A stretch of DNA of 64,000 nucleotides from an uncultured Alphaproteobacteria bacterium (GCA_964611585.1 CAZTAK010000001.1:11132-75131); one strand, 5' to 3'; counted from the stretch's first letter, positions 277-18,496 are shown. The notes: generated from the sequence alone by a model not told the origin. Program-made: numbers and translations.

Positions 277-1260
277 ATGGGCGTGCTGGTGAATGGCATC
301 TGGACCGAAGACGAATCGGCCCTTACCCGTGCGGCCGAAGATGGCCGCTACCGCCGCGCCGGATCGGCGTTCCGAAACTGGGTAACGCCAGACGGCGACG
401 CCGGGCCAAGCGGCGTGGGCGGATTTGCGGCCGCCTCCGGGCGCTACCACCTTTACGTCGCGATCAACTGCCCGTGGGCGCACCGCACCATGATCTTGCG
501 CCGCCTCAAGGGGCTGGAAGAAGTGATCTCGATGTCGGTGGCGCTGCCGAAGCGCGACCCCCGCGGCTGGGTGTTCGGCACCGGCGATCCGGCGTTTGCG
601 GATCATCTGTTCGGCAAGGAAGCGCTCTACGAAATCTATGCCCTCGGGCAGTCCGATTATTCCGGCCGGGTCACGGTGCCGGTCCTGTGGGACAAAGAGC
701 GCGGCGTCATCGTCAACAACGAGTCTTCTGAAATCATCCGAATGCTGAGTACCGCGTTTGTGGAGTTCACCGACGACGCCACCGATTACTACCCCGAAGA
801 TTCGCGCGATACGATCGACGCCTGGAACGAACGAATCTACGAGACCGTCAATAACGGGGTCTATCGCACCGGCTTTGCCCGCAGCCAGTAGGCCTACGAG
901 GAGGCGTTCGAAACGTTGTTAGACACCCTCGATGCGCTCGACGCCCACCTCGCCTCGAACCGCTACATTGCGGGGTCCCGTCTGACCGAGGCCGACTGGC
1001 GCCTGTTCCCGACCCTGGTGCGGTTCGATGCCGCCTATTACGGCGCCTTCAAGTGCAATAAGCGGCGGATCGTCGATTACCCGAATCTGTGGGGCTATAC
1101 CCGCGAGCTCTATCAGACGCCGGGCGTGGCGGAGACCGTCGATACCGAGGTCTACAAGCAGGGCTATTACTCGATCAGCGCGGATCGGAATCCGCTCGGC
1201 ATCGTGCCCAAGGGGTCCGAGATCGACTTCACCGCCCCGCACGGGCGCGAGGGCATCTAG
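277..1260 (+). CDS. yqjG: glutathionyl-hydroquinone reductase (GST Xi class, YqjG-like); reading frame interrupted by an in-frame TAG at 889-891
   Basis: ORFs 277-891 and 916-1260 share one frame. The joined 327-aa product aligns end to end with YqjG (CPWAHRT active-site region, GRVTVPVLWDK, NESSEIIRM, VNNGVYRTGFA..SQ*AYEEA, TEADWRLFPTLVRFD). An RBS (GAAAGGA) is present. Confidence 0.8.
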
Positions 1261-4401: not shown

Positions 4402-5079
4402 TCAAAACGCCGGTTTGAAAAGACCGATTGCGGTATTCGCCACCACGATCGCCCAGAACGCCCAAATAACGGGTTTTGACCTGTCGATCGTGCCCTTGAT
4501 AATGGCCTCGACTTCGGGACTCGATCCCTCGCTCAAAAGGCGCGCGAATGCCGGACCGAACGGTGTCAGCATTTTGTTGACGGCGATCAGACCGGCGAAC
4601 GTGAATCCGTAAAGAAGCACTTTGAGCGCAAGCCAGGGTTCGGAAAATGGCTTGCCCGCCACGAACGAGCCGACCGCCGCCGCCAACACGACGACCAGCA
4701 GTACCCAGTTTATCGCCGAATCGAGACCATGCAGTTTCTTTCCCCAGTCGGGCGCCGTGGGACGGTGGATATTCCAGACCAGAAACAGCCACGCCGCCGC
4801 AACCACCCACACCAGGATCAGCCAACCCCCCTCGACCGGCGACAACCCGGTGCGCGCGGCCAGCGTCATGCCGGTCGGCAGCACCAGCACCATCGACAGG
4901 CGCGGAAATATATCAACTCCCTGCATGACGCGCGCCAGGACGGCGCGGGTCTCGGGCGAATACTCGGTGCGCACGAATAACTTCGCCGAATAGTAGGCGC
5001 CCATGTCGCCGCCGAGCCAGAACGCCATCACCAGAACGTGGATAAAGATCCAGAACGTGGTCCAGTCCCAAAAATCCAT
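4402..5079 (-). CDS. integral membrane protein of unknown function (about 5 predicted TM helices)
   Basis: 225-aa ORF with multiple long hydrophobic segments (FWIFIHVLVMAFWLGG, WLILVWVVAAAWLFLVW, VLLVVVLAAAVGSFVAG). Confidence 0.5.
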   Translation of the reverse strand: MDFWDWTTFWIFIHVLVMAFWLGGDMGAYYSAKLFVRTEYSPETRAVLARVMQGVDIFPRLSMVLVLPTGMTLAARTGLSPVEGGWLILVWVVAAAWLFLVWNIHRPTAPDWGKKLHGLDSAINWVLLVVVLAAAVGSFVAGKPFSEPWLALKVLLYGFTFAGLIAVNKMLTPFGPAFARLLSEGSSPEVEAIIKGTIDRSKPVIWAFWAIVVANTAIGLFKPAF

Positions 5080-5266: not shown

Positions 5267-6094
5267 ATGGACGCGCCAGACATGCCCACCTTGAAAGGAA
5301 AGTGCGCATTGATCACCGGCGGAGGACGCGGCATCGGCCGCGCCATCGCCGAACGCCTCGCTGCCGACGGCGCCGCCGTCGTGATCGTCGATTTCAACGG
5401 AACCACGGCCAGCGAGACCGCCCGGGCCCTCAGCGAATCGGGCGCGCGAGCCGCGTCGTTATGCGCCGATGTCGCTAATCCTGAAGCCGCCGCCGAGGCG
5501 ACGGCCCTTGCGGTAGGCACCTTTGATGGGCTCGACATTCTGGTCAACAACGCCGGCATCGCGCCCAACCGCCGCGTCCTCGACACCACTCTCGAGGAAT
5601 GGGAACGCGTCCTGCGCGTCAACCTGACCGGAACGTTTCTGTTTTCCAAAGCGGCCGCGCCGGCAATGGCTGATCGCGGCGGCGGAAAGATTGTCAATAT
5701 TGCGTCCGTTTCGGGGCAGCGCGGCGGCGTCGGGCGCGGCGCCTATGGAACCTCCAAGGCCGGCATCCTGATGCTGACGCGGATCATGGCGGTCGAATTC
5801 GCGTCCCTGAACATTGCCGTCAACGCCATCGCGCCCGGGCCGATCCGGACCGGCATCACCGATCACAGTGAAGGCACGGTAGCAGGCTACCTCGACCGGA
5901 TACCGATGCGGCGCTACGGCACCACGGACGCGGTGGCCGCCGCTGCCGCCTATCTCGTGTCCGAGGATTGCAGCTATACCACCGGGACGACGCTCAACGT
6001 GGACGGCGGGTTCGACGCCGCCGGGCTGATTTTTTCGCAAGACGAGCTGCGTGCGGCGGACCCGGCGCCGCGCGGCGCGGAAGGGATTCGATGA
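5267..6094 (+). CDS. SDR-family oxidoreductase (FabG-like)
   Basis: It has the TGGGRGIG Rossmann motif, NNAG, and the S...Y..AYGTSK catalytic tetrad. Its stop TGA overlaps the ATG of the next gene (ATGA). Confidence 0.85.
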   Translation: MDAPDMPTLKGKCALITGGGRGIGRAIAERLAADGAAVVIVDFNGTTASETARALSESGARAASLCADVANPEAAAEATALAVGTFDGLDILVNNAGIAPNRRVLDTTLEEWERVLRVNLTGTFLFSKAAAPAMADRGGGKIVNIASVSGQRGGVGRGAYGTSKAGILMLTRIMAVEFASLNIAVNAIAPGPIRTGITDHSEGTVAGYLDRIPMRRYGTTDAVAAAAAYLVSEDCSYTTGTTLNVDGGFDAAGLIFSQDELRAADPAPRGAEGIR

Positions 6095-7782
6095 CCAGCA
6101 AGATCACCGACGAAAATGCATTCTGGCGGACGCCACCGGGGGTTCAACGCGGCTACACGCAGGCGCGCTTCGGGCAGATTCATTACCGTTTCGCCCGCCC
6201 CGCCGAGGCGACCCAAACGCCGCTGATGTGCTTTCACCTGAGCCCGAGTTCGGGCCGGATCTACGCCCGCTTCCTGGCGGAAATGGGCAAGAACCGCCTG
6301 GCGATTGCCCCGGACACGCCGGGCTTCGGCGATTCGGACGTTCCGGCGGAGCCGCCCGAGATTGCCGACTACGCCGCCGCGATGGGCGAGGTTCTGGACG
6401 CGCTGGAAATCGAGACGGTCGATCTGATGGGCTATCACACCGGGTCGAAAATCGCGCTCGAACTCGCCCAACAACGCCCGGCACAGGTTCGCCGCGTGGT
6501 ACTGGTTTCGGCGCCGATCTATTCCGACGAGGAACTCGAAAGCCAGAAATCCCACTACGCCGGGCGCGAGGCCGACGACGCGGGCGATTTTCTCAAAGCG
6601 GCATGGGACGGACAGAAGCGCTGGCGCGCCAAGGACGCCCCCGACATTTTCGTTCACCGCGAGGTGGTGGAGGCGCTGCGGGGCGTCGACCATTCGTGGT
6701 GGGGCCATCGTGCCGCATTCCGCTATCCTCACGCCGACGCCCTGCCCAAGGTGCGCCAGCCGGTAACAATCCTGTGCCCGAAGGACGATCTGTACGAGCA
6801 AACTCTGCGCGCGGCGGATTACATCGACAACGGGCGGCTTCTGGAACTGCCGGACTGGGGCGGCCACGGCATGCTCGACATGCACACGGGCGAGGTCGCG
6901 CAAATCGTGCGGACGGTGCTGGACGGCCCCGAAGAGGCGCACCAACCGGCCGCCGCAAAGCTCGCCCCCGATCCCAGGCCGGGTGCCGACACCGGCTTTC
7001 GCAAGCGGTTCATCGACGGGCCCTACGGGCAGATTCATTTGCGCTATTCCGGGCCCGGAGCGCCCGCAGCGGCACCGCTTTTCTGTTTCCATTCGAGCCC
7101 CAATTCGGGCCTCAAATACAGCGCGATCCTCCGCATGCTGGGGCAGGAACGCACTGTCGTCGCCGTCGATACGCCCGGCTTCGGCGAATCCGAGGCCCCG
7201 GCCAAACCGCCCGAGATCGAGGACTATGCCACCACCATGGCCTACGTCATCGAAACCCTGGGCGCCGGGCCGGTCGACATCATGGGCTATCACACCGGAT
7301 CGGAAACCTGCATCGAGCTCGCGCGCCAGCGCCCCGACCTGGTGCGCAAGATCGTCATGAACTCGGCGCCGATCTTCAGCGATGAAGAACTCCAAGGGTT
7401 CCGCGATCTCTACGCGCCCGATCCGATTGCCGCGGACGGGTCGCACCTTGTCAGGTTCTGGCAACGGATGATCCCGTTCTACGGACCGACGGTGCCGCAC
7501 CCGATTCGGCAACGGAATTTCGCCGAAGGTCTGCGCGGCGGACCGATGTCGCACTGGGGCCACCGGGCCGCATTCAATTATCCGCTGGCGAAGAAGATGG
7601 CGGAGGTCGAAAACGAAATCCTCGTTATCAATCTCGACGACGACTTGAGAGAGCAGACCAAGCAAGCCGAAGGCATATTGCGCAACGGCCGCATTCACAC
7701 CATCGAAAAATACGGTCACGGCTGGTTCGACATCATTCCCGACGAAGCCGCGCGCATCCTGCGCGAATTCCTCGACGCTTGA
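6091..7782 (+). CDS. tandem-duplicated alpha/beta-hydrolase-fold protein (two ~280-aa repeats) with a non-canonical nucleophile elbow
   Basis: There is a clear internal duplication (LMCFHLSPSSG..DTPGFGDSD..DLMGYHTGSKIALELA // LFCFHSSPNSG..DTPGFGESE..DIMGYHTGSETCIELA). The HGXP-like and GxNuxG elbow positions read G-Y-H-T-G, with His where the Ser/Asp nucleophile normally sits. The gene is translationally coupled to the SDR gene. Confidence 0.8.
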   Translation: MTSKITDENAFWRTPPGVQRGYTQARFGQIHYRFARPAEATQTPLMCFHLSPSSGRIYARFLAEMGKNRLAIAPDTPGFGDSDVPAEPPEIADYAAAMGEVLDALEIETVDLMGYHTGSKIALELAQQRPAQVRRVVLVSAPIYSDEELESQKSHYAGREADDAGDFLKAAWDGQKRWRAKDAPDIFVHREVVEALRGVDHSWWGHRAAFRYPHADALPKVRQPVTILCPKDDLYEQTLRAADYIDNGRLLELPDWGGHGMLDMHTGEVAQIVRTVLDGPEEAHQPAAAKLAPDPRPGADTGFRKRFIDGPYGQIHLRYSGPGAPAAAPLFCFHSSPNSGLKYSAILRMLGQERTVVAVDTPGFGESEAPAKPPEIEDYATTMAYVIETLGAGPVDIMGYHTGSETCIELARQRPDLVRKIVMNSAPIFSDEELQGFRDLYAPDPIAADGSHLVRFWQRMIPFYGPTVPHPIRQRNFAEGLRGGPMSHWGHRAAFNYPLAKKMAEVENEILVINLDDDLREQTKQAEGILRNGRIHTIEKYGHGWFDIIPDEAARILREFLDA

Positions 7783-7799
7783 CGGGACAAAGCCGCCCC

Positions 7800-9470
7800 A
7801 TGACACGAATTACCCGCCATTTCGTGACCGTGGGTACGCGCCGGGTGCATTACCGGCGCGCGGGATCGGGGCCCCCGGTAGTGATGCTGCACCCGAGCCC
7901 AAGCTGTTCAGGCAGCCTGACTGGCACCATCGATGTGTTCGCGAAGGCCTTCACCGCCATTGCGCTCGATACGCCCGGTTATGGGCTCTCCGATCTGTTG
8001 CCGATGGAGCAGCCGGAGATCCCCGATTTCGCCGAAGCGCTGGCCGAAACCCTCGATGCGCTGGGCATCGAACGCTGCGGCGTGTTCGGATCGCACACCG
8101 GCGCCTCTATCGCCATCGAATTTATCCGGCGCTATCCCGAACGCGCCTCGATCACGGTGTTCGACGGCTACCCCGGCTATACCGACGACTATCGCGCCGA
8201 CATGCTGGAATCCTACCTGCCGCCCTACGTTCCGAAGTGGGACGGGACTCATCTGTTGACGACGTGGATGAAGTACCGCGAGCAATTCCTCTATTCGCCC
8301 CCCTTCCGGCACCACAAGGAAAACCGCTCCAACGCAGTGCCGCGCGATCCGGTCACGACTCAGGCCGCTGTGACGCCCCGGTTGATGACGGGACGGAACT
8401 ACAACATCGGCTACTCGTCGGTGTTCCGGTACAAGAGCCTTGAGGCGCCGTACGACCTCAAATCTCCCACCTGCTTTGCCGCGCGTGAGGACGATTCGCT
8501 GGTCAGGTCGCTCGGCCTGCTGGACGATTTGCCCGAGGGCTGCTGGAAGGAAGTGCTGGGACGCGACGAGGCCGCCGCCGCCGAACGCTATGCGGAGATC
8601 TTGGCCGAGCGGCTGGAACCGGGCGATACGCCGGCCCCGCCCGACCCGGAAAACCTGCCCGGCCGGGTGCAATACTCCTACACCGATTTTGGCGCCGGCC
8701 AGGTGATGGTGCGCCGCGCCGGCAATGGCGACCGGCCCCTGGTGATGATGCCGCCTCTGCCGGGCACCTCGGACCTTCTCGAGACGCTGATGCTCGCGCT
8801 CGCGCCCGCGCGCGCGGTTATCGCGTTCGACCCGCCGGGCAACGGCGATTCGGACGACTTCCTGCCGCACACGATCGAAGCGTGCGCCGGCGCGCTGGGC
8901 CAGGTTGCAACCAAGCTGGCGGTGGGCGAATTCGACCTCTATGGCCGCAATGCGGGTGCTTCGGTGGCAGCCGCGTTCGCGCACGCCAACCCGGACCGCG
9001 TCGGCAAACTGATTCTCGACGCGCCGCTGGCCCTCGACACTGCCACGGCGGAGGCCTGGCAGGCCGGCTACGCCCCCGCCATCGAACCGAAATGGGACGG
9101 ATCGCACCTGATCGCGCTCTGGCATCAGCTCCGGGCCGAACAATTGTTCTCGCCGTGGTTCAACGAAACAGCCGCAGGCATTCGCGACGTCGAACCCGAA
9201 ATCGACCCCGATTTTCTGTCGCAAAAACTAACCGGCATCCTCAAGCATTACGGCACCTATCACGAATTCTGGGATGTGGCGTTCGAGTATCCAGGGCTCG
9301 ACACGCTGTCTCGTATCGGCCACACGACCCTCGTTTGCGCGCGCAAGAACGACCTGTTCGCCGCCTTCGCCGATGACGCCGCCGAAGCCGTTCCGAAGGC
9401 ATCGCGCGCCACCCTTCCGGCGGAAACACAGGGTGCCGCGCGCGTCATCGCGGAATTCCTGGATTCCTGA
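7800..9470 (+). CDS. tandem-duplicated alpha/beta-hydrolase-fold protein, paralog of the upstream gene
   Basis: It has the same two-repeat architecture (VVMLHPSPSCSG..DTPGYGLSD..FGSHTGASIAIEF // LVMMPPLPGTSD..DPPGNGDSD..LYGRNAGASVAAAF). Alternative TTG start at 7779 overlaps the upstream stop; ATG 7800 was chosen. Confidence 0.75.
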   Translation: MTRITRHFVTVGTRRVHYRRAGSGPPVVMLHPSPSCSGSLTGTIDVFAKAFTAIALDTPGYGLSDLLPMEQPEIPDFAEALAETLDALGIERCGVFGSHTGASIAIEFIRRYPERASITVFDGYPGYTDDYRADMLESYLPPYVPKWDGTHLLTTWMKYREQFLYSPPFRHHKENRSNAVPRDPVTTQAAVTPRLMTGRNYNIGYSSVFRYKSLEAPYDLKSPTCFAAREDDSLVRSLGLLDDLPEGCWKEVLGRDEAAAAERYAEILAERLEPGDTPAPPDPENLPGRVQYSYTDFGAGQVMVRRAGNGDRPLVMMPPLPGTSDLLETLMLALAPARAVIAFDPPGNGDSDDFLPHTIEACAGALGQVATKLAVGEFDLYGRNAGASVAAAFAHANPDRVGKLILDAPLALDTATAEAWQAGYAPAIEPKWDGSHLIALWHQLRAEQLFSPWFNETAAGIRDVEPEIDPDFLSQKLTGILKHYGTYHEFWDVAFEYPGLDTLSRIGHTTLVCARKNDLFAAFADDAAEAVPKASRATLPAETQGAARVIAEFLDS

Positions 9471-9491
9471 CCGCTCGCCGTCGCCACTCCC

Positions 9492-10487
9492 TTGAACGAT
9501 CCCGGGCAACAAGAAGTTCTCGTCATCAAGCACGGTGCGCTCGGCGATATGGTGCTGGCGACCGGCCCCTTCGGCGCCATCCGGGCGCATCACGCGCGCG
9601 CGCACATCACCTTGCTGACGACCAGCGCCTACGCGGAAATGATGCAGGGCTCGGGTTGGTTCGACGAAATCTGGATCGACAGCAAACCCACGCTCTGGCA
9701 ACCCGGCGACTGGTTGCGGCTGAGGCGGATGCTGCGCGGCGGGAACTTCGCGCGGGTCTACGACCTGCAGCACAGCGATCGAACTCATATGTACTACCGC
9801 CTGCTCGGCCGGCCGCGCCCGGAATGGTCGGGGATCGCCAAAGGTGCCTCGCACCCCCACACCAACCCCGACCGCGATTCGATGCACACCATCGAACGCC
9901 AAGCCGAACAACTTGCCCAGGCGGGAATCGCGAAAACCCCGCCGACCGATATTTCTTTTCTTGCCGCCGACCTGACGCGGTTACGGCTCGGGGACCGGTA
10001 CGCGCTGCTGGTCCCCGGCGGCGCCCGCCACCGGCCCCGCAAGCGCTGGCCCGCGGGCCGTTACGCGGCGCTGGCGGGTTGGCTGGCCAATCGCGACGTG
10101 CGGCCGGTGCTGATCGGGACGCTCGAGGAACAGGATGTCCTCGACGAAATCGCCGACCGCGTGCCCGCAACTCTCAACCTGTGCCAGGACACCACCTTCG
10201 CCGAGATTGCCGAACTCGCCCGCCACGCCATCGCCGCCGTCGGCAACGACACCGGCCCGATGCACCTGATCGCGGCCGCCGGATGCCCCACGGTGGTGCT
10301 GTTTTCGGCGGAATCGGTGCCGGCGCAAACCGCGCCGCGCGGCGAGGCCGTGACGATTCTCGAGGCGAAAACGCTGGAAACGATGGCGGTCGCGCGGGTT
10401 CTTGTGGCGCTCAAGGATTTCGATCCGGCCTTTTCGCGCGAAGCCAAACCAGGCGAGACCCTGGGGGAGAGCCCCGAGACCGGCTGA
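9492..10487 (+). CDS. glycosyltransferase family 9 (ADP-heptose:LPS heptosyltransferase-like)
   Basis: VLVIKHGALGDMVLATGPF at the N-terminus and the C-terminal GNDTGPMHLAAAAGCPTVVLF motif are characteristic of GT9. The probable start is TTG, 22 nt after the upstream stop. Confidence 0.8.
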   Translation: MNDPGQQEVLVIKHGALGDMVLATGPFGAIRAHHARAHITLLTTSAYAEMMQGSGWFDEIWIDSKPTLWQPGDWLRLRRMLRGGNFARVYDLQHSDRTHMYYRLLGRPRPEWSGIAKGASHPHTNPDRDSMHTIERQAEQLAQAGIAKTPPTDISFLAADLTRLRLGDRYALLVPGGARHRPRKRWPAGRYAALAGWLANRDVRPVLIGTLEEQDVLDEIADRVPATLNLCQDTTFAEIAELARHAIAAVGNDTGPMHLIAAAGCPTVVLFSAESVPAQTAPRGEAVTILEAKTLETMAVARVLVALKDFDPAFSREAKPGETLGESPETG

Positions 10488-10561
10488 CCCGCCGCTGCGG
10501 CCTTGCGCCCACCGGCTCGCACGGGCCACAATCGGCGCATCAACCGCCGGAGGATTGAACC

Positions 10562-11134
10562 ATGCCGAACCCCGTATTGCCGCGCGTTGCGCGCGAGGAC
10601 ATGCCCGAAGTCTTGCGGCAGGGCTATGACACCGCGAAAGAGGTGCGTGGCGACGCGACCTTCTTCGAGATCGGCGCGCACGCCCCCGAAATCCTGGACT
10701 GGTATCACAACAGCTTCTATTCGCGCGTATTCTACGGCGGCAAGGTGGACGTGAAGATCAAGGAACTTCTGCGCTACCGCCTGTCGATGACCCATGGCTG
10801 CGCGTTCTGCAACAAAGGCAACCGGCTCGCCGCCATCAAGGCGGGCGTAACCGAGGACCAGTTCCACAACATCATGAACGAATCGAGCGATGTGTTTTCG
10901 GACGGCGAGCGTGCGGTGCTGAAACTCGCCGATCAGATCGCCATTCCCAACATGCACGGCAATCTCGACAAGGCGCTCTATGACGCCCTGCGGCCCCACT
11001 TTTCCGACGGTGAAATCTTCGAACTCGGCGTGACCGCGGCGGTTCTCACCGGCATGGCGAAGTTCCTGTTCGTGTTCGATCTGGTCGAAAAGGAAGCAAA
11101 CTGCCCGATCGTGCCGCGCCAGGCGGCGGAATAG
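10562..11134 (+). CDS. carboxymuconolactone decarboxylase / AhpD-like family protein
   Basis: It carries the CMD-family core with a HGCAFCN (CxxC) motif and is about 190 aa. Confidence 0.8.
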   Translation: MPNPVLPRVAREDMPEVLRQGYDTAKEVRGDATFFEIGAHAPEILDWYHNSFYSRVFYGGKVDVKIKELLRYRLSMTHGCAFCNKGNRLAAIKAGVTEDQFHNIMNESSDVFSDGERAVLKLADQIAIPNMHGNLDKALYDALRPHFSDGEIFELGVTAAVLTGMAKFLFVFDLVEKEANCPIVPRQAAE

Positions 11135-11220: not shown

Positions 11221-11610
11221 ATGAACCGGCATTTCAATCCCGCCACCTCGTTTCCGCCGCAGGGGGCCTATAGCCACGGTGTCGATGTGCCGCCGGGATC
11301 GCGCATGGTGTATGTCGCGGGCCAGGTGGGCGTGGACAAAGACGGCAACACGCCCGAGGATTTCGCATCGGAAGCCGACAACGCCTTCGCCAACGTGGTG
11401 CGCGTTCTGGCGGACGCGGGCATGGAACCGACCGATATCGTCAAGCTCAACACCTACCTGACGCGCCCGGAAGACATGGCAACGCTGCGGCCGATTCGCG
11501 AGAAGCACTTCGGCGATCACGCCCCGGCCGCAACGCTGGTGTACGTCGCCGGCCTCGCCGCGCCGATCTGGCATATCGAGATCGAGGCGGTGGCGGCGAA
11601 GAAGGATTAG
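11221..11610 (+). CDS. RidA/YjgF/TdcF family reactive-intermediate deaminase
   Basis: The 129-aa product has RidA-family motifs (PPQGAYSHGV, YVAGQVGVD, NTYLT, HAPAATLVYVAGL). A strong RBS (AGGAGG) is present. Confidence 0.85.
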   Translation: MNRHFNPATSFPPQGAYSHGVDVPPGSRMVYVAGQVGVDKDGNTPEDFASEADNAFANVVRVLADAGMEPTDIVKLNTYLTRPEDMATLRPIREKHFGDHAPAATLVYVAGLAAPIWHIEIEAVAAKKD

Positions 11611-11686: not shown

Positions 11687-12118
11687 TTAGCCGTGGTGGA
11701 AGTCGTGCATCTCGGCCATGTCGTTCCAGACCCATTGCTCGGCGAACTTGCCGCCGCGGATCAGGAAGCGGTCGATGTAGCGGATGCCTGAATACGGCGA
11801 TCCGTCGAGCCATTTCCCTTGCAGGGTGCCGATACTGAAAACAACGGTGCCATCGGGTGTCTCGGCCACCTCGAAGCGTTCGAATGTCTTGCTGGTGCCG
11901 GTGTAGCGGCTTTTTGAAAACGCCGCCAGGTCTTCCAGTTTCGTGTAGCGCCGCGCGCCCGGGAAAAGCATCTCGAAGTCCGGCGCCAGCATCGTGCGCG
12001 CGGTGTCGAAATCGCGCGCCTCCATGGTCCGCAAATATGTCGCGACCATGCGTTCCGGCGAGCCTTCGGGCAAATCTTCGGGTTCGAGGGATTTCTGTTT
12101 CAGCGCGGCTTCGGCCAT
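11687..12118 (-). CDS. SnoaL-like / NTF2-like fold protein
   Basis: The 143-aa ORF has an NTF2-like pattern (VATYLRTMEARDFDTARTMLAPDFEMLFPG..RFLIRGGKFAEQWVWND). Confidence 0.55.
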   Translation of the reverse strand: MAEAALKQKSLEPEDLPEGSPERMVATYLRTMEARDFDTARTMLAPDFEMLFPGARRYTKLEDLAAFSKSRYTGTSKTFERFEVAETPDGTVVFSIGTLQGKWLDGSPYSGIRYIDRFLIRGGKFAEQWVWNDMAEMHDFHHG

Positions 12119-12457: not shown

Positions 12458-12694
12458 CTAGTCGTCGAGATCGACGCGCAGAAGCCCCATCGACCAGACG
12501 AACAGCCGATACCACACGAACCCCAGTCCAAACAGCGCCGCCAGCACCCCCGGCAACATCACCCAAGCCAGCCCACGCGCCTCGAGCCACGCAAAGCCCT
12601 GGACCTGAAACCACCACAGTCCGCCGACCGCCGCCGCGAAAACGACTGCGCCCGCAAATGCGAGCGAAACCAATATCTTGTAGCGTACCGCCAT
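12458..12694 (-). CDS. small hypothetical membrane protein (2 TM)
   Basis: The 78-aa ORF has two hydrophobic helices. It abuts repeat copy B. Support is weak. Confidence 0.3.
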   Translation of the reverse strand: MAVRYKILVSLAFAGAVVFAAAVGGLWWFQVQGFAWLEARGLAWVMLPGVLAALFGLGFVWYRLFVWSMGLLRVDLDD

Positions 12695-12939: not shown

Positions 12940-14217
12940 ATGGGAATGACGCTTTCCGAGAAGATAATCGCCAGGGCCTGCGGGCAGGATTCGGTGCGGC
13001 CGGGTGAAATCGTGACCTGCAAGGTCGATCTCGCCATGACCCACGATTCGAGCGGGCCGCGCCGCCAGGCGCCGCGCCTGAAGGAACTCGGCGTCAAGGT
13101 GTGGGACCCGGACAAGGTGGTGATCCTTACGGATCACTACGTTCCGGCGGTCGATGCGCTGAGCGCGGAGATCCTCAAACTCACACGCGACTGGGTCAAA
13201 GAACAGGGGATAAAGAATTTCTACGACATGCAGGGCATCTGCCATGTCGTGCTGCCCGAGCGCGGCCACCTGCACCCGGGCCAGTTCGCCGTCGGCGGTG
13301 ATTCCCACTCGCCCACCGGGGGCGCGTTCGGGACCTTCATGATCGGGGTCGGCGCCACCGATATGACCGGCGTTCTGGCGACCGGCGAAATCTGGGTCAA
13401 CGTACCGCCGACCATCCTGGTGCGCTGGACCGGCGATCTTCCCGAATACGTCACCGCCAAGGACATGATGCTGCGGCTGTGCGGCGAGATCGGCCTTAAC
13501 GGCGCCAACTACAAGGTCGTTGAGTTCGCCGGCAATGGCGTGAGCGCGCTCTCGATGGACGAACGCATGGTGCTGCCCAACATGACCGCCGAAGTCGGCG
13601 CCAAAACCGGCATCATTGCCCCCGACGCGGTGACGGTGGAATGGCTAAAAGCCGCGGGCGCGGAAACAGCGGGCGCGCTGGACTGGTTTTCGGACGAGGA
13701 CTGCGAGTACGAGAGTGTGTTGGAATTCGATGCCTCCACACTGTCACCACAGGTGGCGGCGCCGCACAGTCCGGCCAATGCCGCGCCGGTAGAGGACTTC
13801 AAGGACGTTGCCGTCGATCAGGCCTACATCGGCGCCTGCACCGGCGCGAAACTCGAAGACCTGCACATGGCGGCCGAGATCGTCCGCGGCCAGACCGTCG
13901 CCGAGGGAACGCGCTTTCTGGTGGCGCCCGCCTCAACGCGAATTACGGCGCAAGCCGCCGCCGACGGGACGCTGGCGACGCTGACCGCGGCAGGTGCAAT
14001 CTTGCTGCCGTCCGGTTGCGGCGCGTGTGCGGGCCTCGGCGCGGGCGTGTTGTCGGCAGGCGAGACCTGCATCTCGTCCACCAACCGTAATTTCAAGGGC
14101 CGCATGGGCCCCTCGGACGCTTCCGTTTATCTGGGATCGCCCTATGCAGTGGCGGCCGCGGCGGTGGCCGGGCACATCGCCGATCCCCGCGACATCAGCA
14201 ACCGGAGGGCATCATGA
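12940..14217 (+). CDS. aconitase-family dehydratase large subunit, archaeal-type LeuC-like (LeuC/homoaconitase/dimethylmaleate hydratase family)
   Basis: The 425-aa product aligns along its length with small-type LeuC (MGMTLSEKI, VDLAMTHD, GGDSHSPTGGAFG, the Fe-S cysteines in SGCGACAG and ISSTNRNFKGRMG). Confidence 0.85.
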   Translation: MGMTLSEKIIARACGQDSVRPGEIVTCKVDLAMTHDSSGPRRQAPRLKELGVKVWDPDKVVILTDHYVPAVDALSAEILKLTRDWVKEQGIKNFYDMQGICHVVLPERGHLHPGQFAVGGDSHSPTGGAFGTFMIGVGATDMTGVLATGEIWVNVPPTILVRWTGDLPEYVTAKDMMLRLCGEIGLNGANYKVVEFAGNGVSALSMDERMVLPNMTAEVGAKTGIIAPDAVTVEWLKAAGAETAGALDWFSDEDCEYESVLEFDASTLSPQVAAPHSPANAAPVEDFKDVAVDQAYIGACTGAKLEDLHMAAEIVRGQTVAEGTRFLVAPASTRITAQAAADGTLATLTAAGAILLPSGCGACAGLGAGVLSAGETCISSTNRNFKGRMGPSDASVYLGSPYAVAAAAVAGHIADPRDISNRRAS

Positions 14218-14720
14218 GCGGTACGGACGGCGGCGGCACCGCCTGGGTCTATGGCGACGACATCGACACGGATTCGCTGGCGCCGGGGCTCTATCTCAAA
14301 GGGTCGATGGAGGAGATGGCGAAGCATTGCCTCGAAGCGATCGACCCCACCTTCGCCGCCGAATCCAAGGAAGGCGACTTCGTGGTGGCGGACGAGAATT
14401 TCGGCATCGGTTCGTCGCGCGAACAGGCGGCGCAGTGCCTGTCGATATTGGGCGTCAATGTGGTGCTGGCCAAGAGTTTCGCGCGTATCTTTTACCGCAA
14501 CGCTTTCAACGTCGGTGTCGTGCCGCTGGTGTTCAAAGACGCGGACAAAATCAAGAAAGGCGACCGCCTGCGGGTCGATGCGGCTGCGGGCACGATCGAA
14601 AATCTTACCAGGAACGAGACCTACACCTGCGAGACCGTACCACCGCACCTGATGGAAATCGTTGCCGACGGCGGCCTGATGCCGCATCTGAAAAAGAAAC
14701 TGAAAGGAAAAACGACGTGA
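14214..14720 (+). CDS. aconitase-family dehydratase small subunit (LeuD-like)
   Basis: ATGA overlap with the upstream stop. The product has the LeuD-like swivel domain (VYGDDIDTD, GIGSSREQA). Confidence 0.85.
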   Translation: MSGTDGGGTAWVYGDDIDTDSLAPGLYLKGSMEEMAKHCLEAIDPTFAAESKEGDFVVADENFGIGSSREQAAQCLSILGVNVVLAKSFARIFYRNAFNVGVVPLVFKDADKIKKGDRLRVDAAAGTIENLTRNETYTCETVPPHLMEIVADGGLMPHLKKKLKGKTT

Positions 14721-15601
14721 CCGATTATCAATCGCTCAAGAGCCAGCTTGCAGGCGATGACATCATCGTCGCGCCCGGCTGCTATGACGCCTATTCGGCA
14801 ATGATGATCGCCAAGGCCGGCTTCAGCGTGGCCTACATCTCCGGCGCCGGCGTGTCGTTTACGCGCATCGGACGTCCCGATATCGGCCTGGTCAGCATGC
14901 ACGAAGTGGCCGAGACCGTGAGCGCGATCGCAGAATTCAACGACATCCCGCTGGTCATCGACGGCGATACCGGATTCGGTAATGCGCTCAACGTAATGCG
15001 CACGGTGCGCCTGTTCGAACGCGCGGGCGCGAGCGCGATTCAGCTCGAAGACCAGACCATGCCCAAGCGCTGCGGTCACCTGAGCGGAAAGTCGCTGGTG
15101 CCGGATGCGGAAATGGTCGGCAAGATCAAGGCCGCGACCGACGCACGGCGCTCGGACCAAACACTGATCATCGGCCGCACCGACGCGATCGCGGTCGAGG
15201 GGTTCGAACGCGCGCTCGAGCGCGCCGAACGCTACGTCGAGGCGGGCGCGGACGTCCTGTTCATCGAGGCGCCGCAGACCGACGATCAGATGAAGGCCCT
15301 GACGGCGCAGTTCAAAGGCCGGGTCCCGCTCCTGGCGAACATGGTCGAGGGCGGCAAGACGCCGCTGAAAAGTGCGGCCGAGTTGCAGGCGCTCGGCTAT
15401 TCGCTGGTGATTTTTCCGGGCGGGCTGATCCGGGCCTATTCGTTCATGGCCGCGGAATACCTGAAGAGTTTACGCGAAAACGGCACCACGGCGCCCTACC
15501 GCAACCGGATGCTGGATTTCGATCAGCTCCAGGAGGTGCTGGGAACGGCCTCGGTGCTGGAGGCGGGCGGGCGCTACGACGCCGAGAACTTCGAGGCCTG
15601 A
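14717..15601 (+). CDS. isocitrate lyase/PEP mutase superfamily lyase (2-methylisocitrate lyase / 2,3-dimethylmalate lyase-like)
   Basis: The GTG start overlaps the LeuD-like stop (GTGA). The product carries the ICL/PEPM signature KRCGH plus DGDTGFG and IEDQ. Confidence 0.8.
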   Translation: MTDYQSLKSQLAGDDIIVAPGCYDAYSAMMIAKAGFSVAYISGAGVSFTRIGRPDIGLVSMHEVAETVSAIAEFNDIPLVIDGDTGFGNALNVMRTVRLFERAGASAIQLEDQTMPKRCGHLSGKSLVPDAEMVGKIKAATDARRSDQTLIIGRTDAIAVEGFERALERAERYVEAGADVLFIEAPQTDDQMKALTAQFKGRVPLLANMVEGGKTPLKSAAELQALGYSLVIFPGGLIRAYSFMAAEYLKSLRENGTTAPYRNRMLDFDQLQEVLGTASVLEAGGRYDAENFEA

Positions 15602-15629
15602 CAAGCGAGGCATACGAAGCGGACGCGCG

Positions 15630-16496
15630 ATGACCGAACGCTTCACGTTTTCGAGCCCGGACGCCCTGGCGGCACGCATCCCTGACGGCGCGCACCTGGC
15701 GATCCCGGCCGACCGGCGCGGCGTGTCGATGGCAACGACGCGCGCCCTTATCCGCCGCAGCGCGCGCGATCTCCGGCTCGTCGCCGTCCCCACCAGCGGG
15801 CTTCAGGCTGATCTCCTGATCGGCGCCGGCGCAGTCGCCGAAATCGAAACATCGGCCGTCTCGCTGGGCGAATACGGCCCGGCGCCGCGGTTTGGCGAGG
15901 CCGTCGAGCAGGGACGCATCGTCATCTTGGACGCTACCTGCCCCGCCATTCACGCCGGATTGCACGCCGCCGAAAAAGGCATCCCGTTCATGCCGCTCAG
16001 GGGAATTCTGGGCTCGGACCTGCTGGTCCACCGCCCCGACTGGACAGTGATCGAAAATCCCCTGGGGCCGGTGCCGGAAGAACGGCCCGGCACCACGGCA
16101 GAGGACTTTGCCGATCCCATCGTCATTCTGCCGGCGATCCGGCCCGATTTCGCGCTCTTTCATGTGCCGCTCGCCGACCGGGCCGGCAATATCTGGGTCG
16201 GGCGCAACCGCGATCTCATTACCATGGCGCATGCGGCGCGCGAGACCCTGGTGACAGTGGAAGCAATCGCCGATCACGATCTCATGGCCGATCGCGAATG
16301 GGCGGCGGGGACGCTTTCGTCGTTCTATGTGAGTGGCATCGCCGTTGCCGAGAAGGGCGCCTGGCCGACGGCGATGCCGGGCACCTACGAAGAAGACGCA
16401 GAGCACATGCGCCGCTACGCCGAACAAGCCCGCAGCGGCGAGGGATTCGCGGCCTACCTCGAGGAATTCGTTTTTCAGGACCTTTCCCTCGGGTAG
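15630..16496 (+). CDS. CoA-transferase family I, subunit A
   Basis: The 288-aa product resembles glutaconate/3-oxoadipate CoA-transferase A subunits. It sits immediately upstream of the B subunit. Confidence 0.7.
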   Translation: MTERFTFSSPDALAARIPDGAHLAIPADRRGVSMATTRALIRRSARDLRLVAVPTSGLQADLLIGAGAVAEIETSAVSLGEYGPAPRFGEAVEQGRIVILDATCPAIHAGLHAAEKGIPFMPLRGILGSDLLVHRPDWTVIENPLGPVPEERPGTTAEDFADPIVILPAIRPDFALFHVPLADRAGNIWVGRNRDLITMAHAARETLVTVEAIADHDLMADREWAAGTLSSFYVSGIAVAEKGAWPTAMPGTYEEDAEHMRRYAEQARSGEGFAAYLEEFVFQDLSLG

Positions 16497-16501
16497 CGCT
16501 C

Positions 16502-17224
16502 ATGGATGCCGGGCCCGAAGAGTTCCTGATCTGCGTCATCGCGCGGCTTCTCGCCGGCACGCGCCATATCGCGGTCGGCGCCCTGTCGCCGATACCCGGA
16601 TCGGCGGCGCTGTTGCACCAGGCTGAGAGCCGCGAGCCGGTTCGCGTCTCGGTTCTCGACAGCCGGCGCAATTTCTGGTCGGACGGCAGCAAGGAACTGT
16701 TCGACTGCGCGGCGCAGGGACGCATCGACGCCTTTTTCCTCGGCGGCGCCCAGATCGACGGCCAGGGCAACGTCAACCTCGTCGGCGTCGGTGGTTATCC
16801 CCGGCCGAAGACGCGCTTTTCGGGATCGTTCGGATCGGCCTATCTCTATTTTCTCGTGCCGAGGGTGATTCTGTTCCGAGAGGAGCACACGCCGCGGACG
16901 CTGGTCGATAAAGTCGATTTCATATCGAGCCCCGGAACGAGCCCGGACAACGTCTATCGCCGCGGCGGGCCCTCGGCGCTGGTGACGGGAAAAGCGCTGT
17001 TCACCTTCGATGAGGCGGGGCGCCGCTTTCGCCTCGCCAGCAGCCATCCGGGATACACCGCGCCGGACATCGAGGCGGCGACAGGATTTGCCTTCGAGAC
17101 GCCTGCCTCGGTCCCGGCAACAGCGGCCCCCGATGCGGCCACGCTCAATCTGTTGCGGGGACCCGTGGCCCGCGAGATCGCCGAGACCTACCCCCGCTTC
17201 GCCGCACGGGTTTTCGGCGACTAA
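16502..17224 (+). CDS. CoA-transferase family I, subunit B
   Basis: The ATG lies 6 nt after the subunit A stop. The B-subunit-like sequence (GGAQIDGQGNVNLVGVG) is present. Confidence 0.65.
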   Translation: MDAGPEEFLICVIARLLAGTRHIAVGALSPIPGSAALLHQAESREPVRVSVLDSRRNFWSDGSKELFDCAAQGRIDAFFLGGAQIDGQGNVNLVGVGGYPRPKTRFSGSFGSAYLYFLVPRVILFREEHTPRTLVDKVDFISSPGTSPDNVYRRGGPSALVTGKALFTFDEAGRRFRLASSHPGYTAPDIEAATGFAFETPASVPATAAPDAATLNLLRGPVAREIAETYPRFAARVFGD

Positions 17225-17377: not shown

Positions 17378-18496
17378 ATGCGCGCCGATATGACCCACGA
17401 CGAGACCGCGCAGATGGATTTTATCATGAGCCTCTACCGGCACCTCGGGCGCAACATCGTGCCCGGGCACCGCGAGGTTTATGACGGGCGCGTCAAACCC
17501 GCGTTCGAACGCAAGAACGGCCGGGCGCCGAAAACCCGCCACGAAGTTCGCAAGGCAATGCTGGACGACCCCTACTTTCAGTTCTGGAGCCATCTGCGCC
17601 TTTACAGCCAGGCCAAGAGCTATGACCTGAGGCGCGAGATCGTCGACCGGCAATTGGACGACCTGATCGAGCGCGCCAAACCACGCGCGTCCGACAAGGG
17701 CACGGTGGAACTCGATGCCGATTTCGAGATTCCGAAATATCAGGCGGCGTTCGACATGCACTGGATGCCGGGCAGCTTCTACACCGAATTCGCCGAGGAC
17801 GACGTCGCCGCGGGCGTCATGTATGACACCGGCGGGCTCTATATCGCGCTGTCAGGTTCGATCGGCGCCTACAACGACGGCGCCGGCCATGCGGTGGTGC
17901 ACTGGCTCAACGAAAATCACCCGGATTTCAAACCGAAGCGCGTGCTCGACGAGGGCTGCACCGCAGGCGGCAATACATTGCCCTTCAAGTATGCCTAGCC
18001 CGATGCGGAGATAACCGCCATCGACATCGGCGCACCGGTACTGCGCTATGCCCACCGCCGGGCCGAGAGCCTCGGCTATGAAGTCCATTTCTCGCAGCAG
18101 AATGCCGAAGAAACGAGATATGAAGACGAGAGCTTCGATCTTGTGGTTTCGACCATGTTTTTGCACGAAACCTCGAACAAGGCGGTGCACAACATCGTTG
18201 CCGAATGCCACCGGCTGTTGAAACCGGGCGGGCTGATGGTGCATGTCGAGCAACCGCCGTTCGCGCGCTTCGACGATCCCTTCGATCAGTTCGTGCGCGA
18301 CTGGGACACGCACAACAACAACGAGCCGTTCTGGGGCCCGATGCACGACATGGACCTGCCCCAGGTAGCGGTGAAGGCGGGCTTCGCGCGCGATGACGTC
18401 ATCATGGAAATGGCGAAATATTGCGCCCCCACCAAAGAGAACCCCTACCGCGAGGCGCCGGGCGGCTGGTTCATCTTCGGTGCCTGGAAACGGTAA
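17378..18496 (+). CDS. class I SAM-dependent methyltransferase; reading frame interrupted by an in-frame TAG at 17996-17998
   Basis: ORFs 17378-17998 and 18143-18496 are in the same frame. Methyltransferase motif I (VLDEGCTAGG) is followed by KYA-TAG-PDAEITAIDIG and then by DLVVSTMFLHE and LLKPGGLM (post-I motifs) after the stop. Confidence 0.6.

Follow-up and report, generated by a model that had tools for sequence, protein, structure and literature searches.

A five-gene string combining histidine-elbow alpha/beta-hydrolases and a heptosyltransferase-like gene is probably a lineage-specific mosaic in an uncultured alphaproteobacterium

We analyzed a string of five same-strand genes at positions 5,267 to 11,134 of a 64,000-nucleotide stretch of DNA from an uncultured Alphaproteobacteria bacterium (GCA_964611585.1, CAZTAK010000001.1:11132-75131); this whole stretch is referred to here as the window. 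The string encodes a short-chain dehydrogenase/reductase (SDR), two double alpha/beta-hydrolase (ABH) proteins (dABH1 and dABH2), a family 9 glycosyltransferase (GT9), and an AhpD-like protein of the carboxymuconolactone decarboxylase (CMD) family. We consider it probable, with moderate confidence, that the string brings together three units, themselves probably co-transcribed, as a lineage-specific mosaic and not as one pathway. The SDR and the two ABH proteins would form a small-molecule-metabolism module, the GT9 would be this clade's copy of a housekeeping, heptosyltransferase-like envelope enzyme, and the CMD protein, together with the product of a sixth, RidA-family gene, would represent small redox or reactive-intermediate-quenching proteins that travel with a syntenic block. 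The genes concerned are as follows.

5267-6094, plus strand: SDR gene (adh_short_C2, PF13561, 220 bits)
6091-7782, plus strand: dABH1 gene, a double ABH of 563 amino acids (two Abhydrolase_1 stretches)
7800-9470, plus strand: dABH2 gene, a double ABH of 556 amino acids (two Abhydrolase_1 stretches)
9492-10487, plus strand: GT9 gene (Glyco_transf_9, PF01075, 81.4 bits against a cutoff of 22)
10562-11134, plus strand: AhpD-like CMD gene (PF02627, 41.2 bits against a cutoff of 23)
11221-11610, plus strand: RidA-family gene, the sixth co-directional gene (PF01042, 86 bits)

The original prediction had taken the GT9 gene as a pointer to lipopolysaccharide (LPS) or envelope chemistry for the operon as a whole. 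Viewed from its own side, the gene does not serve as such a pointer. The GT9 has 5,540 homologs and is far more conserved than the neighboring genes of the string. Among the best 120 cluster representatives, one of which comes from Paramagnetospirillum marisnigri, identity to the GT9 is 54 to 69%. We surveyed its context by taking one genome per GTDB species, which gave 80 ortholog loci at 50 to 69% identity, and ran all window proteins against these loci by tblastn. The SDR, dABH1, dABH2, CMD, RidA, and an aconitase-like gene occurred near GT9 in a single locus, that of the closest relative (L014); the other 79 loci lacked the SDR, ABH, and CMD genes. The usual gene immediately 5′ of GT9 is a GT4 glycosyltransferase, and thrS and infC lie directly 3′ in 50 of the 79 other loci. 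A conserved single ABH protein of 261 amino acids (ABH261) is encoded on the opposite strand about 1.3 kb upstream in 57 of the 79, and further upstream a conserved gene of about 300 amino acids without a Pfam match is found in 41. Across loci L016 to L092, this alphaproteobacterial neighborhood (the ∼300-amino-acid gene, ABH261, GT4, GT9, thrS, and infC) is kept over many orders, and we found no description of a GT4-GT9-thrS-infC neighborhood in the literature searched on alphaproteobacterial GT9 genes.

The GT9 protein itself looks competent. Heptosyltransferases carry the signature D(T/S)(G/A)XXH, and key residues have been described for WaaC (PMC3559599). The window protein has D253-T-G-P-M-H258, which fits the signature, and residues N252-D253-T254-G255-P256-M257-H258 are invariant in 25 GT9 orthologs. 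Residues D19, K184, and E213 are also conserved, and we matched them by eye to D13, K192, and E222 of WaaC. The protein thus shares with the LPS core heptosyltransferases WaaC and WaaF (CAZy GT9, PF01075) the domain, the signature, and counterparts of the key residues. Unlike them, it is usually partnered by GT4 and thrS-infC and not by a waa cluster, and it scores below the equivalog cutoffs for WaaC (65.7 versus 134.6 bits), WaaF (64.3 versus 185.3 bits), and WaaQ (40.4 versus 170.2 bits). The nearest solved structures are WaaF (1psw) and a GT9 protein whose function is not known (3tov), with E values of only about 1e-8. Judged by its sequence, the protein would be an uncharacterized, housekeeping-type, heptosyltransferase-like envelope glycosyltransferase. 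A gene of the O-antigen-ligase family (Wzy_C) adjoins GT9 in L094 (10001-12218), and in L045 (7073-9183) its called open reading frame (ORF) overlaps GT9; these adjacencies support an envelope role for the glycosyltransferase.

The ABH genes, taken from their own side, lead away from GT9 as well. Searches with dABH1 returned 223 word-indexed homologs, the best 120 of which are 42 to 68% identical, and an exhaustive HMMER pass over 1.84 billion representatives (clusters at 50% identity) placed 326 representatives in the subfamily at an E value of ≤1e-30. Its members are a mix of single-domain proteins of about 270 amino acids and double-domain proteins of about 560 amino acids; dABH1 and dABH2, which we call type 1 and type 2, are 27% identical over their full length. 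We clustered the neighbors of subfamily genes in 88 loci, made up of 80 metagenome contigs, 7 earlier loci, and the window. The commonest neighbor was a methyltransferase of about 390 amino acids (13 loci), followed by an SDR (11), a 225-amino-acid membrane protein (10), CMD (7), and GT9 (5). All five loci with GT9 come from one clade. Six of the seven loci with CMD belong to that clade's block. In the independent contig L134, CMD lies beside a single-domain member. In the window, the membrane protein and the methyltransferase homolog are located as follows.

4402-5079, minus strand: 225-amino-acid integral membrane protein, hydrophobic throughout, with only a weak DUF2269 match, divergent from the SDR gene
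17378-18496, plus strand: homolog of the methyltransferase (∼370 to 397 amino acids), matched by tblastn at 39 to 43% identity over 353 to 393 residues in one frame

Homologs of the membrane protein occupy the same divergent position in L011, L012, L014, and L093 and in the independent marine contigs L095 to L097. Two of these marine contigs (L096 and L097) read membrane protein (minus strand), SDR, double ABH, and methyltransferase, L095 has the first three of these, and none of the three has GT9. One 5.18-Mb genome encodes three type 1 paralogs, of which only P0019, identical at 510 of 511 positions to the L093 gene, lies in a GT9 block. The gene for P0003, which is 68% identical to dABH1, adjoins genes for an FAD oxidoreductase, an acetoacetate-decarboxylase-family protein, an RraA-like protein, and two single-domain subfamily members, and that for P0040 adjoins a divergent SDR and an acyl-CoA dehydrogenase; neither has GT9 nearby. 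In the cultured Humitalea sp. 24SJ18S-53, an acyl-CoA-synthetase-like gene and a class II aldolase precede a type 2 gene, whose other neighbors are a methyltransferase, an FAD oxidase, a GntR regulator, and an ABC importer. Further genes appear in the extended clusters of L012 and a Joint Genome Institute (JGI) contig: those for a luciferase-like monooxygenase, an ABM protein, a UbiX flavin prenyltransferase, and SnoaL-like proteins, as well as a second methyltransferase gene. Taken together, these neighborhoods look like soluble small-molecule metabolism and not like envelope assembly.

Where the linkage to GT9 does hold, it holds within one clade. In a neighbor-joining tree of 85 GT9 sequences, all six cluster-linked GT9s fall into a clade of nine tips. 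At the remaining three tips (L013, L017, and L028), both the cluster and the thrS context are missing; in L017 and L028, GT9 neighbors a major facilitator superfamily transporter and an NMT1-like binding protein. The order dABH1-dABH2-GT9-CMD is found in L011, L093, and L014 at protein identities of 56 to 69%, with gaps of 3 to 60 nt. In L012 and the JGI contig, four double ABH genes come first, and after them a single ABH gene on the opposite strand, then GT9, a class II aldolase, and CMD, while L094 reads GT9-Wzy_C-CMD-RidA and has a double ABH gene 9 kb upstream, beyond signaling genes. The CMD gene always lies 3′ of GT9 in these loci, and CMD and RidA are also adjacent in L014 and L094. 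Two candidates for the usual GT9 neighbors were rejected: the single ABH upstream of GT9 in L012 gave no tblastn match to ABH261, and the 412-amino-acid gene upstream of GT9 in L094 encodes a cyclase-like protein instead of GT4. In the four closest members (the window, L014, L011, and L093) the whole block is syntenic, plainly unrelated genes included; it extends from a glyoxalase gene and the 225-amino-acid membrane protein to a LeuC/LeuD-like dehydratase, a PrpB-like lyase, two CoA-transferase subunits, and the methyltransferase. The simplest account is that GT9 departed from its thrS neighborhood once, in the ancestor of the clade, and has since been carried in a conserved block. A synteny search had been proposed as the check on the operon; the linkage proved conserved within this clade and fails beyond it.

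The string was otherwise much as originally described. Its five same-strand genes are present with overlapping or very short junctions, and each product scores above the Pfam gathering threshold for its stated family. The SDR and dABH1 genes are joined by an ATGA overlap of stop and start codons (6091-6094), and the following junctions measure 17 nt (dABH1 TGA at 7780-7782 to ATG at 7800), 21 nt (dABH2 TGA at 9468-9470 to TTG at 9492), and 74 nt (GT9 TGA at 10485-10487 to ATG at 10562); another 86 nt separate CMD from RidA. The plus-strand frames are the coding ones, with GC contents at third codon positions of 0.78 to 0.82, and the long ORFs on the opposite strand (e.g., 5974-7806) are shadows in high-GC DNA. 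A scan for terminator-like sites found none on the plus strand in any intergenic gap of the string; the total of 10 such sites is at the background level expected from shuffles (8.8 ± 3.6), and a promoter scan was likewise at background. The string is tight and probably co-transcribed. As short same-strand junctions are ordinary in bacteria, it is statistically unremarkable in itself and ordinary in form, and its only unusual element is the ABH subfamily. We found no described locus of such composition, in agreement with the earlier remark that the gene combination was not a recognized one. The dABH2 and GT9 genes share a reading frame (9468-9494), with TGA and seven codons between them and no sign of read-through or fusion.

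Several points weigh against a mosaic. The gap between dABH2 and GT9 is only 21 nt in the window and 3 nt in L011 and L093. Co-transcription of GT9 with the ABH genes is therefore very likely, and this classically hints at a common function. In all six sequenced cluster loci and in the JGI contig, CMD lies within one or two genes of GT9. If the genomes of the clade contain a second, GT4-GT9-thrS copy, the GT9 of the cluster would be a specialized paralog. Finally, the histidine-elbow chemistry that we propose below for the ABH module is derived from conservation only.

The original prediction had also suspected that the hydrolase-fold proteins might be non-canonical, and this suspicion was borne out. 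In an alignment with the lactonase AidH, the motif GWSLG corresponds to GYHTG of dABH1, with the nucleophilic Ser replaced by His. Both domains of dABH1 have the elbow GYHTG (His116 and His401), whereas the N-domain of dABH2 has GSHTG (His99) and its C-domain a degenerate GRNAG (Asn384); a Ser, Cys, or Asp nucleophile in a Sm-X-Nu-X-Sm elbow is absent from all four domains. Among type 1 proteins, the substituted elbow is more conserved than the canonical His after beta8, as the following counts show.

Elbow His, type 1: N-domain 121/121, C-domain 121/121
Thr after the elbow His, type 1: N-domain 118/121, C-domain 120/121
Asp after beta7, type 1: N-domain 120/121, C-domain 120/121
His of the HxSP turn, type 1: N-domain 116/116 aligned, C-domain 121/121
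Usual His after beta8, type 1: N-domain 98/121, C-domain 101/121

Among 119 type 2 proteins, the N-domain elbow is GxHTGA in 118. The C-domain elbow position holds N, G, Q, or H, and Pro often replaces the His of the HxSP turn. Single-domain relatives (<450 amino acids, fragments included) have GxHTG in 86 of 106 cases, and a canonical GxS/D/CxG elbow is nearly absent (6/148). The acid and His residues after beta7 and beta8 are D232/H259 and D517/H543 in dABH1; dABH2 keeps the Asp (D232 and D518) and has no His after beta8 in either domain, a helix beginning right after the strand. Structure prediction had been suggested as a way to see whether a catalytic triad is formed, and no Ser-His-Asp triad was found in any of the four domains. 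Three domains have a highly conserved His(elbow)-Asp arrangement, and the fourth, the C-domain of dABH2, is degenerate.

AlphaFold2 models of dABH1 and dABH2 (pLDDT of 94.2 and 94.7, respectively) predict two complete, eight-stranded ABH domains in each protein and place His116, His401, His99, and Asn384 between beta5 and the next helix. Foldseek matched the models to many PDB structures with a probability of 1.0, all of them generic single-domain ABH proteins; TM-scores normalized to the query were ≤0.41, and no solved structure spans both domains. The best PDB sequence match had an E value of 3.5e-11, and neither the PDB sequence search nor Foldseek returned a solved structure of the GxHTG subfamily or of the tandem architecture. 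Likewise, no paper describing a His at the nucleophile elbow, a GXHXG motif, or the ABH subfamily was found in the literature searched, the coverage of which was partial, making this weak evidence of novelty.

Because the elbow and the polar residues around it are invariant at an overall identity of 42 to 68% (R56, R190, E194, and H206 of dABH1 among them), we infer that the GxHTG domains are catalytic. As they lack the means for the usual acyl- or alkyl-enzyme, the most economical mechanism would have the elbow His act alongside the invariant beta7 Asp as a general base or as a ligand. The reaction is likely a hydrolysis, hydration, isomerization, or decarboxylation of a small substrate, possibly a carboxylated or anionic one, as suggested by the invariant Arg residues. 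dABH1 and dABH2 may act as a heteromer in which three domains carry His-elbow sites and the degenerate fourth is structural. Tandem subfamily genes occur in 19 of 81 loci, and because these include unfused single-domain pairs, the two-domain proteins look like fusions of cooperating subunits. Tandem single-domain GxHTG genes in L112 (4072-5795, 4-nt overlap) and L126 (4894-6677, 2-nt gap) resemble an unfused version of the double-domain proteins. Each of the loci L012 (2140-12884) and the JGI contig has two type 1 genes in tandem and two type 2 genes in tandem, four double ABH genes in all, with a luciferase-like monooxygenase, a methyltransferase, a 114-amino-acid ORF, and an ABM protein between the pairs.

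The SDR would handle an adjoining alcohol/ketone redox step. It is a classical oxidoreductase, similar to FabG and glucose-1-dehydrogenase (NF005559, 234 bits, above the cutoff of 215), whose translation contains the motifs TGxxxGxG, NNAG, and S...YxxxK as ITGGGRGIG, VNNAG, and S...YGTSK; its start may be the ATG at 5282 instead of 5267. The divergent membrane protein and the S-adenosylmethionine (SAM)-dependent methyltransferase would be wider conserved partners of this module. The GT9 would act on the LPS core or another envelope glycan independently of its neighbors. The CMD protein has a CxxC motif (HGCAFCNKG); its best NCBIfam matches are YciW-related or peroxidase-related and all below cutoff, the best being YciW-related (40.8 versus 310 bits). 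A bolder proposal is that the GxHTG proteins are a new catalytic class within the ABH fold, in which the invariant elbow His and beta7 Asp replace the Ser/Cys/Asp nucleophile, the His serving as a general base or ligating a metal or cofactor, and in which obligate multidomain heteromers, fused or tandem, work in a conserved SDR-ABH-methyltransferase pathway of marine and soil Alphaproteobacteria. We put this forward tentatively, as a possibility that we would not yet expect to hold.

It has to be asked whether the five genes could after all form one envelope-glycoconjugate pathway, in which GT9 adds a heptose-type sugar to the LPS core or another lipid or glycan while the SDR and ABH proteins bind the product or tailor it, e.g., through deacylation, O-acyl transfer, or sugar oxidation. 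Gaps of 3 to 21 nt between dABH2 and GT9 in four diverged genomes and the retention of the ABH-GT9-CMD order despite that divergence would be expected from such a pathway, and the Wzy_C gene between GT9 and CMD in L094 demonstrates that envelope genes can enter the block. Yet the usual partners of GT9 are GT4 and thrS-infC, GT9 never occurs at ABH loci outside the one clade, and the partners of the ABH genes (methyltransferase, SDR, luciferase-like monooxygenase, class II aldolase, UbiX, SnoaL, FAD oxidases, and GntR with an ABC importer) have a soluble-metabolism character. Moreover, among the window ORFs annotated with Pfam over 0.3 to 62 kb, there is no other LPS or envelope-polysaccharide biosynthesis gene. 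We therefore hold a single envelope pathway to be very doubtful. A different question is whether the double ABH proteins are enzymes at all. Like NDRG or the ABH-fold hormone receptors, they could be noncatalytic ligand-binding or scaffold proteins for sensing or sequestering a metabolite, which would leave the SDR as the sole enzyme of the module. The absence of a nucleophile from all four domains, the loss of the beta8-loop His from both domains of dABH2, its variable C-domain elbow, and weak matches to the Ndr family (PF03096) are all consistent with this. NDRG, however, only shares with dABH the lack of a canonical nucleophile: in dABH, the substituted site is itself invariant (His-Thr), as are the beta7 Asp, the HxSP turn, and several Arg and His residues. 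Such invariance, with an elbow more conserved than the canonical His, is the pattern typical of a catalytic site, and the subfamily is found in enzyme-rich, catabolic-looking clusters, which makes pseudoenzymes an unlikely explanation.

Comparison with known ABH systems suggests one more arrangement. By analogy with the Rut pyrimidine pathway (RutD, an ABH; RutC, of the RidA family; and YdfG, an SDR) or with PcaD/PcaC lactone chemistry, the SDR, the ABH pair, the AhpD-like protein, and RidA might be one unit for reactive intermediates, with GT9 as an unrelated insert. In such a unit, hydrolysis of an enamine, enol-lactone, or peracid-derived intermediate would fall to the ABH proteins and reduction of a hydroperoxide to AhpD, with RidA quenching an imine and the SDR reducing the aldehyde that results. 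The ABH domains do give partial matches to RutD (67 and 56 bits) and, as the top NCBIfam matches of dABH1, to PcaD and PcaDC (91 bits against a cutoff of 256); as with PcaD, a 3-oxoadipate enol-lactonase, PcaC, of the CMD family, and PcaDC fusions, the window has ABH and CMD in one string. CMD lies beside RidA in the window, L014, and L094, and beside a single-domain subfamily member in L134. Two further Rut enzyme classes have counterparts: luciferase-like monooxygenases (the RutA class) in the extended clusters of L012, the JGI contig, and Humitalea, and isochorismatase genes (the RutB class) in L001 and at 21.4 kb of the window. All of these scores are nevertheless far below the family cutoffs (e.g., 238 bits for RutD), CMD is bound to the clade's block and not to the ABH family at large, and the window has no luciferase-like monooxygenase. 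Unlike in PcaD/PcaC, the Ser is replaced by His in dABH1, the window CMD has an AhpD-type CxxC motif with no PcaC model among its NCBIfam matches, and GT9 intervenes. The analogy is built on family names and not on orthology, and we consider such a unit improbable. The mosaic remains our preferred reading of the string.

Asp-nucleophile ABH enzymes, such as epoxide hydrolases and haloalkane and fluoroacetate dehalogenases, have a GHDWG-type elbow. With them, dABH shares the Abhydrolase_1 fold, an H-x-x-P turn after beta3 (here HxSP), and a helical cap, and dehalogenases, Cif, and enol-lactonases are among its best sequence and fold matches. Unlike them, it has a His elbow (GYHTG) and a tandem two-domain architecture. 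EphD (NF004514), a fusion of ABH and SDR, offers a further parallel, as an SDR is likewise the immediate partner of dABH in the window.

For LPS biology, the mosaic has little consequence, as the operon is no pointer to a new core modification. It shows instead how a tight gene arrangement that looks conserved can mislead: the syntenic block of one clade contains a housekeeping GT9, and linkage is therefore worth checking from each gene's own side. What the analysis does define is a compact ABH subfamily with His at the nucleophile position that exists in single-domain, tandem, and fused forms. Were the subfamily catalytic, one of the best-studied enzyme folds would gain new chemistry. With Humitalea sp. 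24SJ18S-53, a cultured carrier exists.

The annotated ORFs of the window comprise metabolic, transport, and signaling genes only, among them a Mla lipid-transport system at 33.6 to 37.2 kb. The SnoaL, ABM, methyltransferase, and SDR neighbors prompted us to consider a polyketide or other biosynthetic cluster; this was rejected, as no polyketide synthase or nonribosomal peptide synthetase was found over 0.3 to 62 kb. The region following RidA contains the features below.

11687-12118, minus strand: SnoaL/DUF4440-like gene
12458-12694, minus strand: conserved ORF of 77 to 79 amino acids, without a Pfam match
12940-17224, plus strand: operon of a LeuC/HacA-like dehydratase (large and small subunits), a PrpB-like lyase, and two CoA-transferase subunits

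The first two recur between CMD/RidA and the dehydratase operon in L011, L093, and L094, and the operon is conserved in the clade. Its lyase belongs to the phosphoenolpyruvate mutase/isocitrate-lyase family (297 bits, below the cutoff of 354), and we presume that the operon resembles organic-acid catabolism of the dimethylmalate dehydratase/lyase type.

The methyltransferase homolog at 17378-18496, whose SAM motif I reads VLDEGCTAG, is interrupted by an in-frame TAG (17996-17998) that aligns to a Phe in its homolog. As L006, an independent assembly of the same organism, also has the gene called as a 206-amino-acid product, it is likely a pseudogene. An in-frame TAG at 889-891 similarly splits a glutathione S-transferase (GST)-like gene of 328 codons (GST_N_2 and GST_C_2; 277-1260, plus strand), which is a probable second pseudogene or assembly variant. 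Recoding of the stop codon was rejected as an explanation for the in-frame TAGs at 889 and 17996: TAG ends 16 of 48 genes, including that of the CMD protein, whose length matches that of its homologs.

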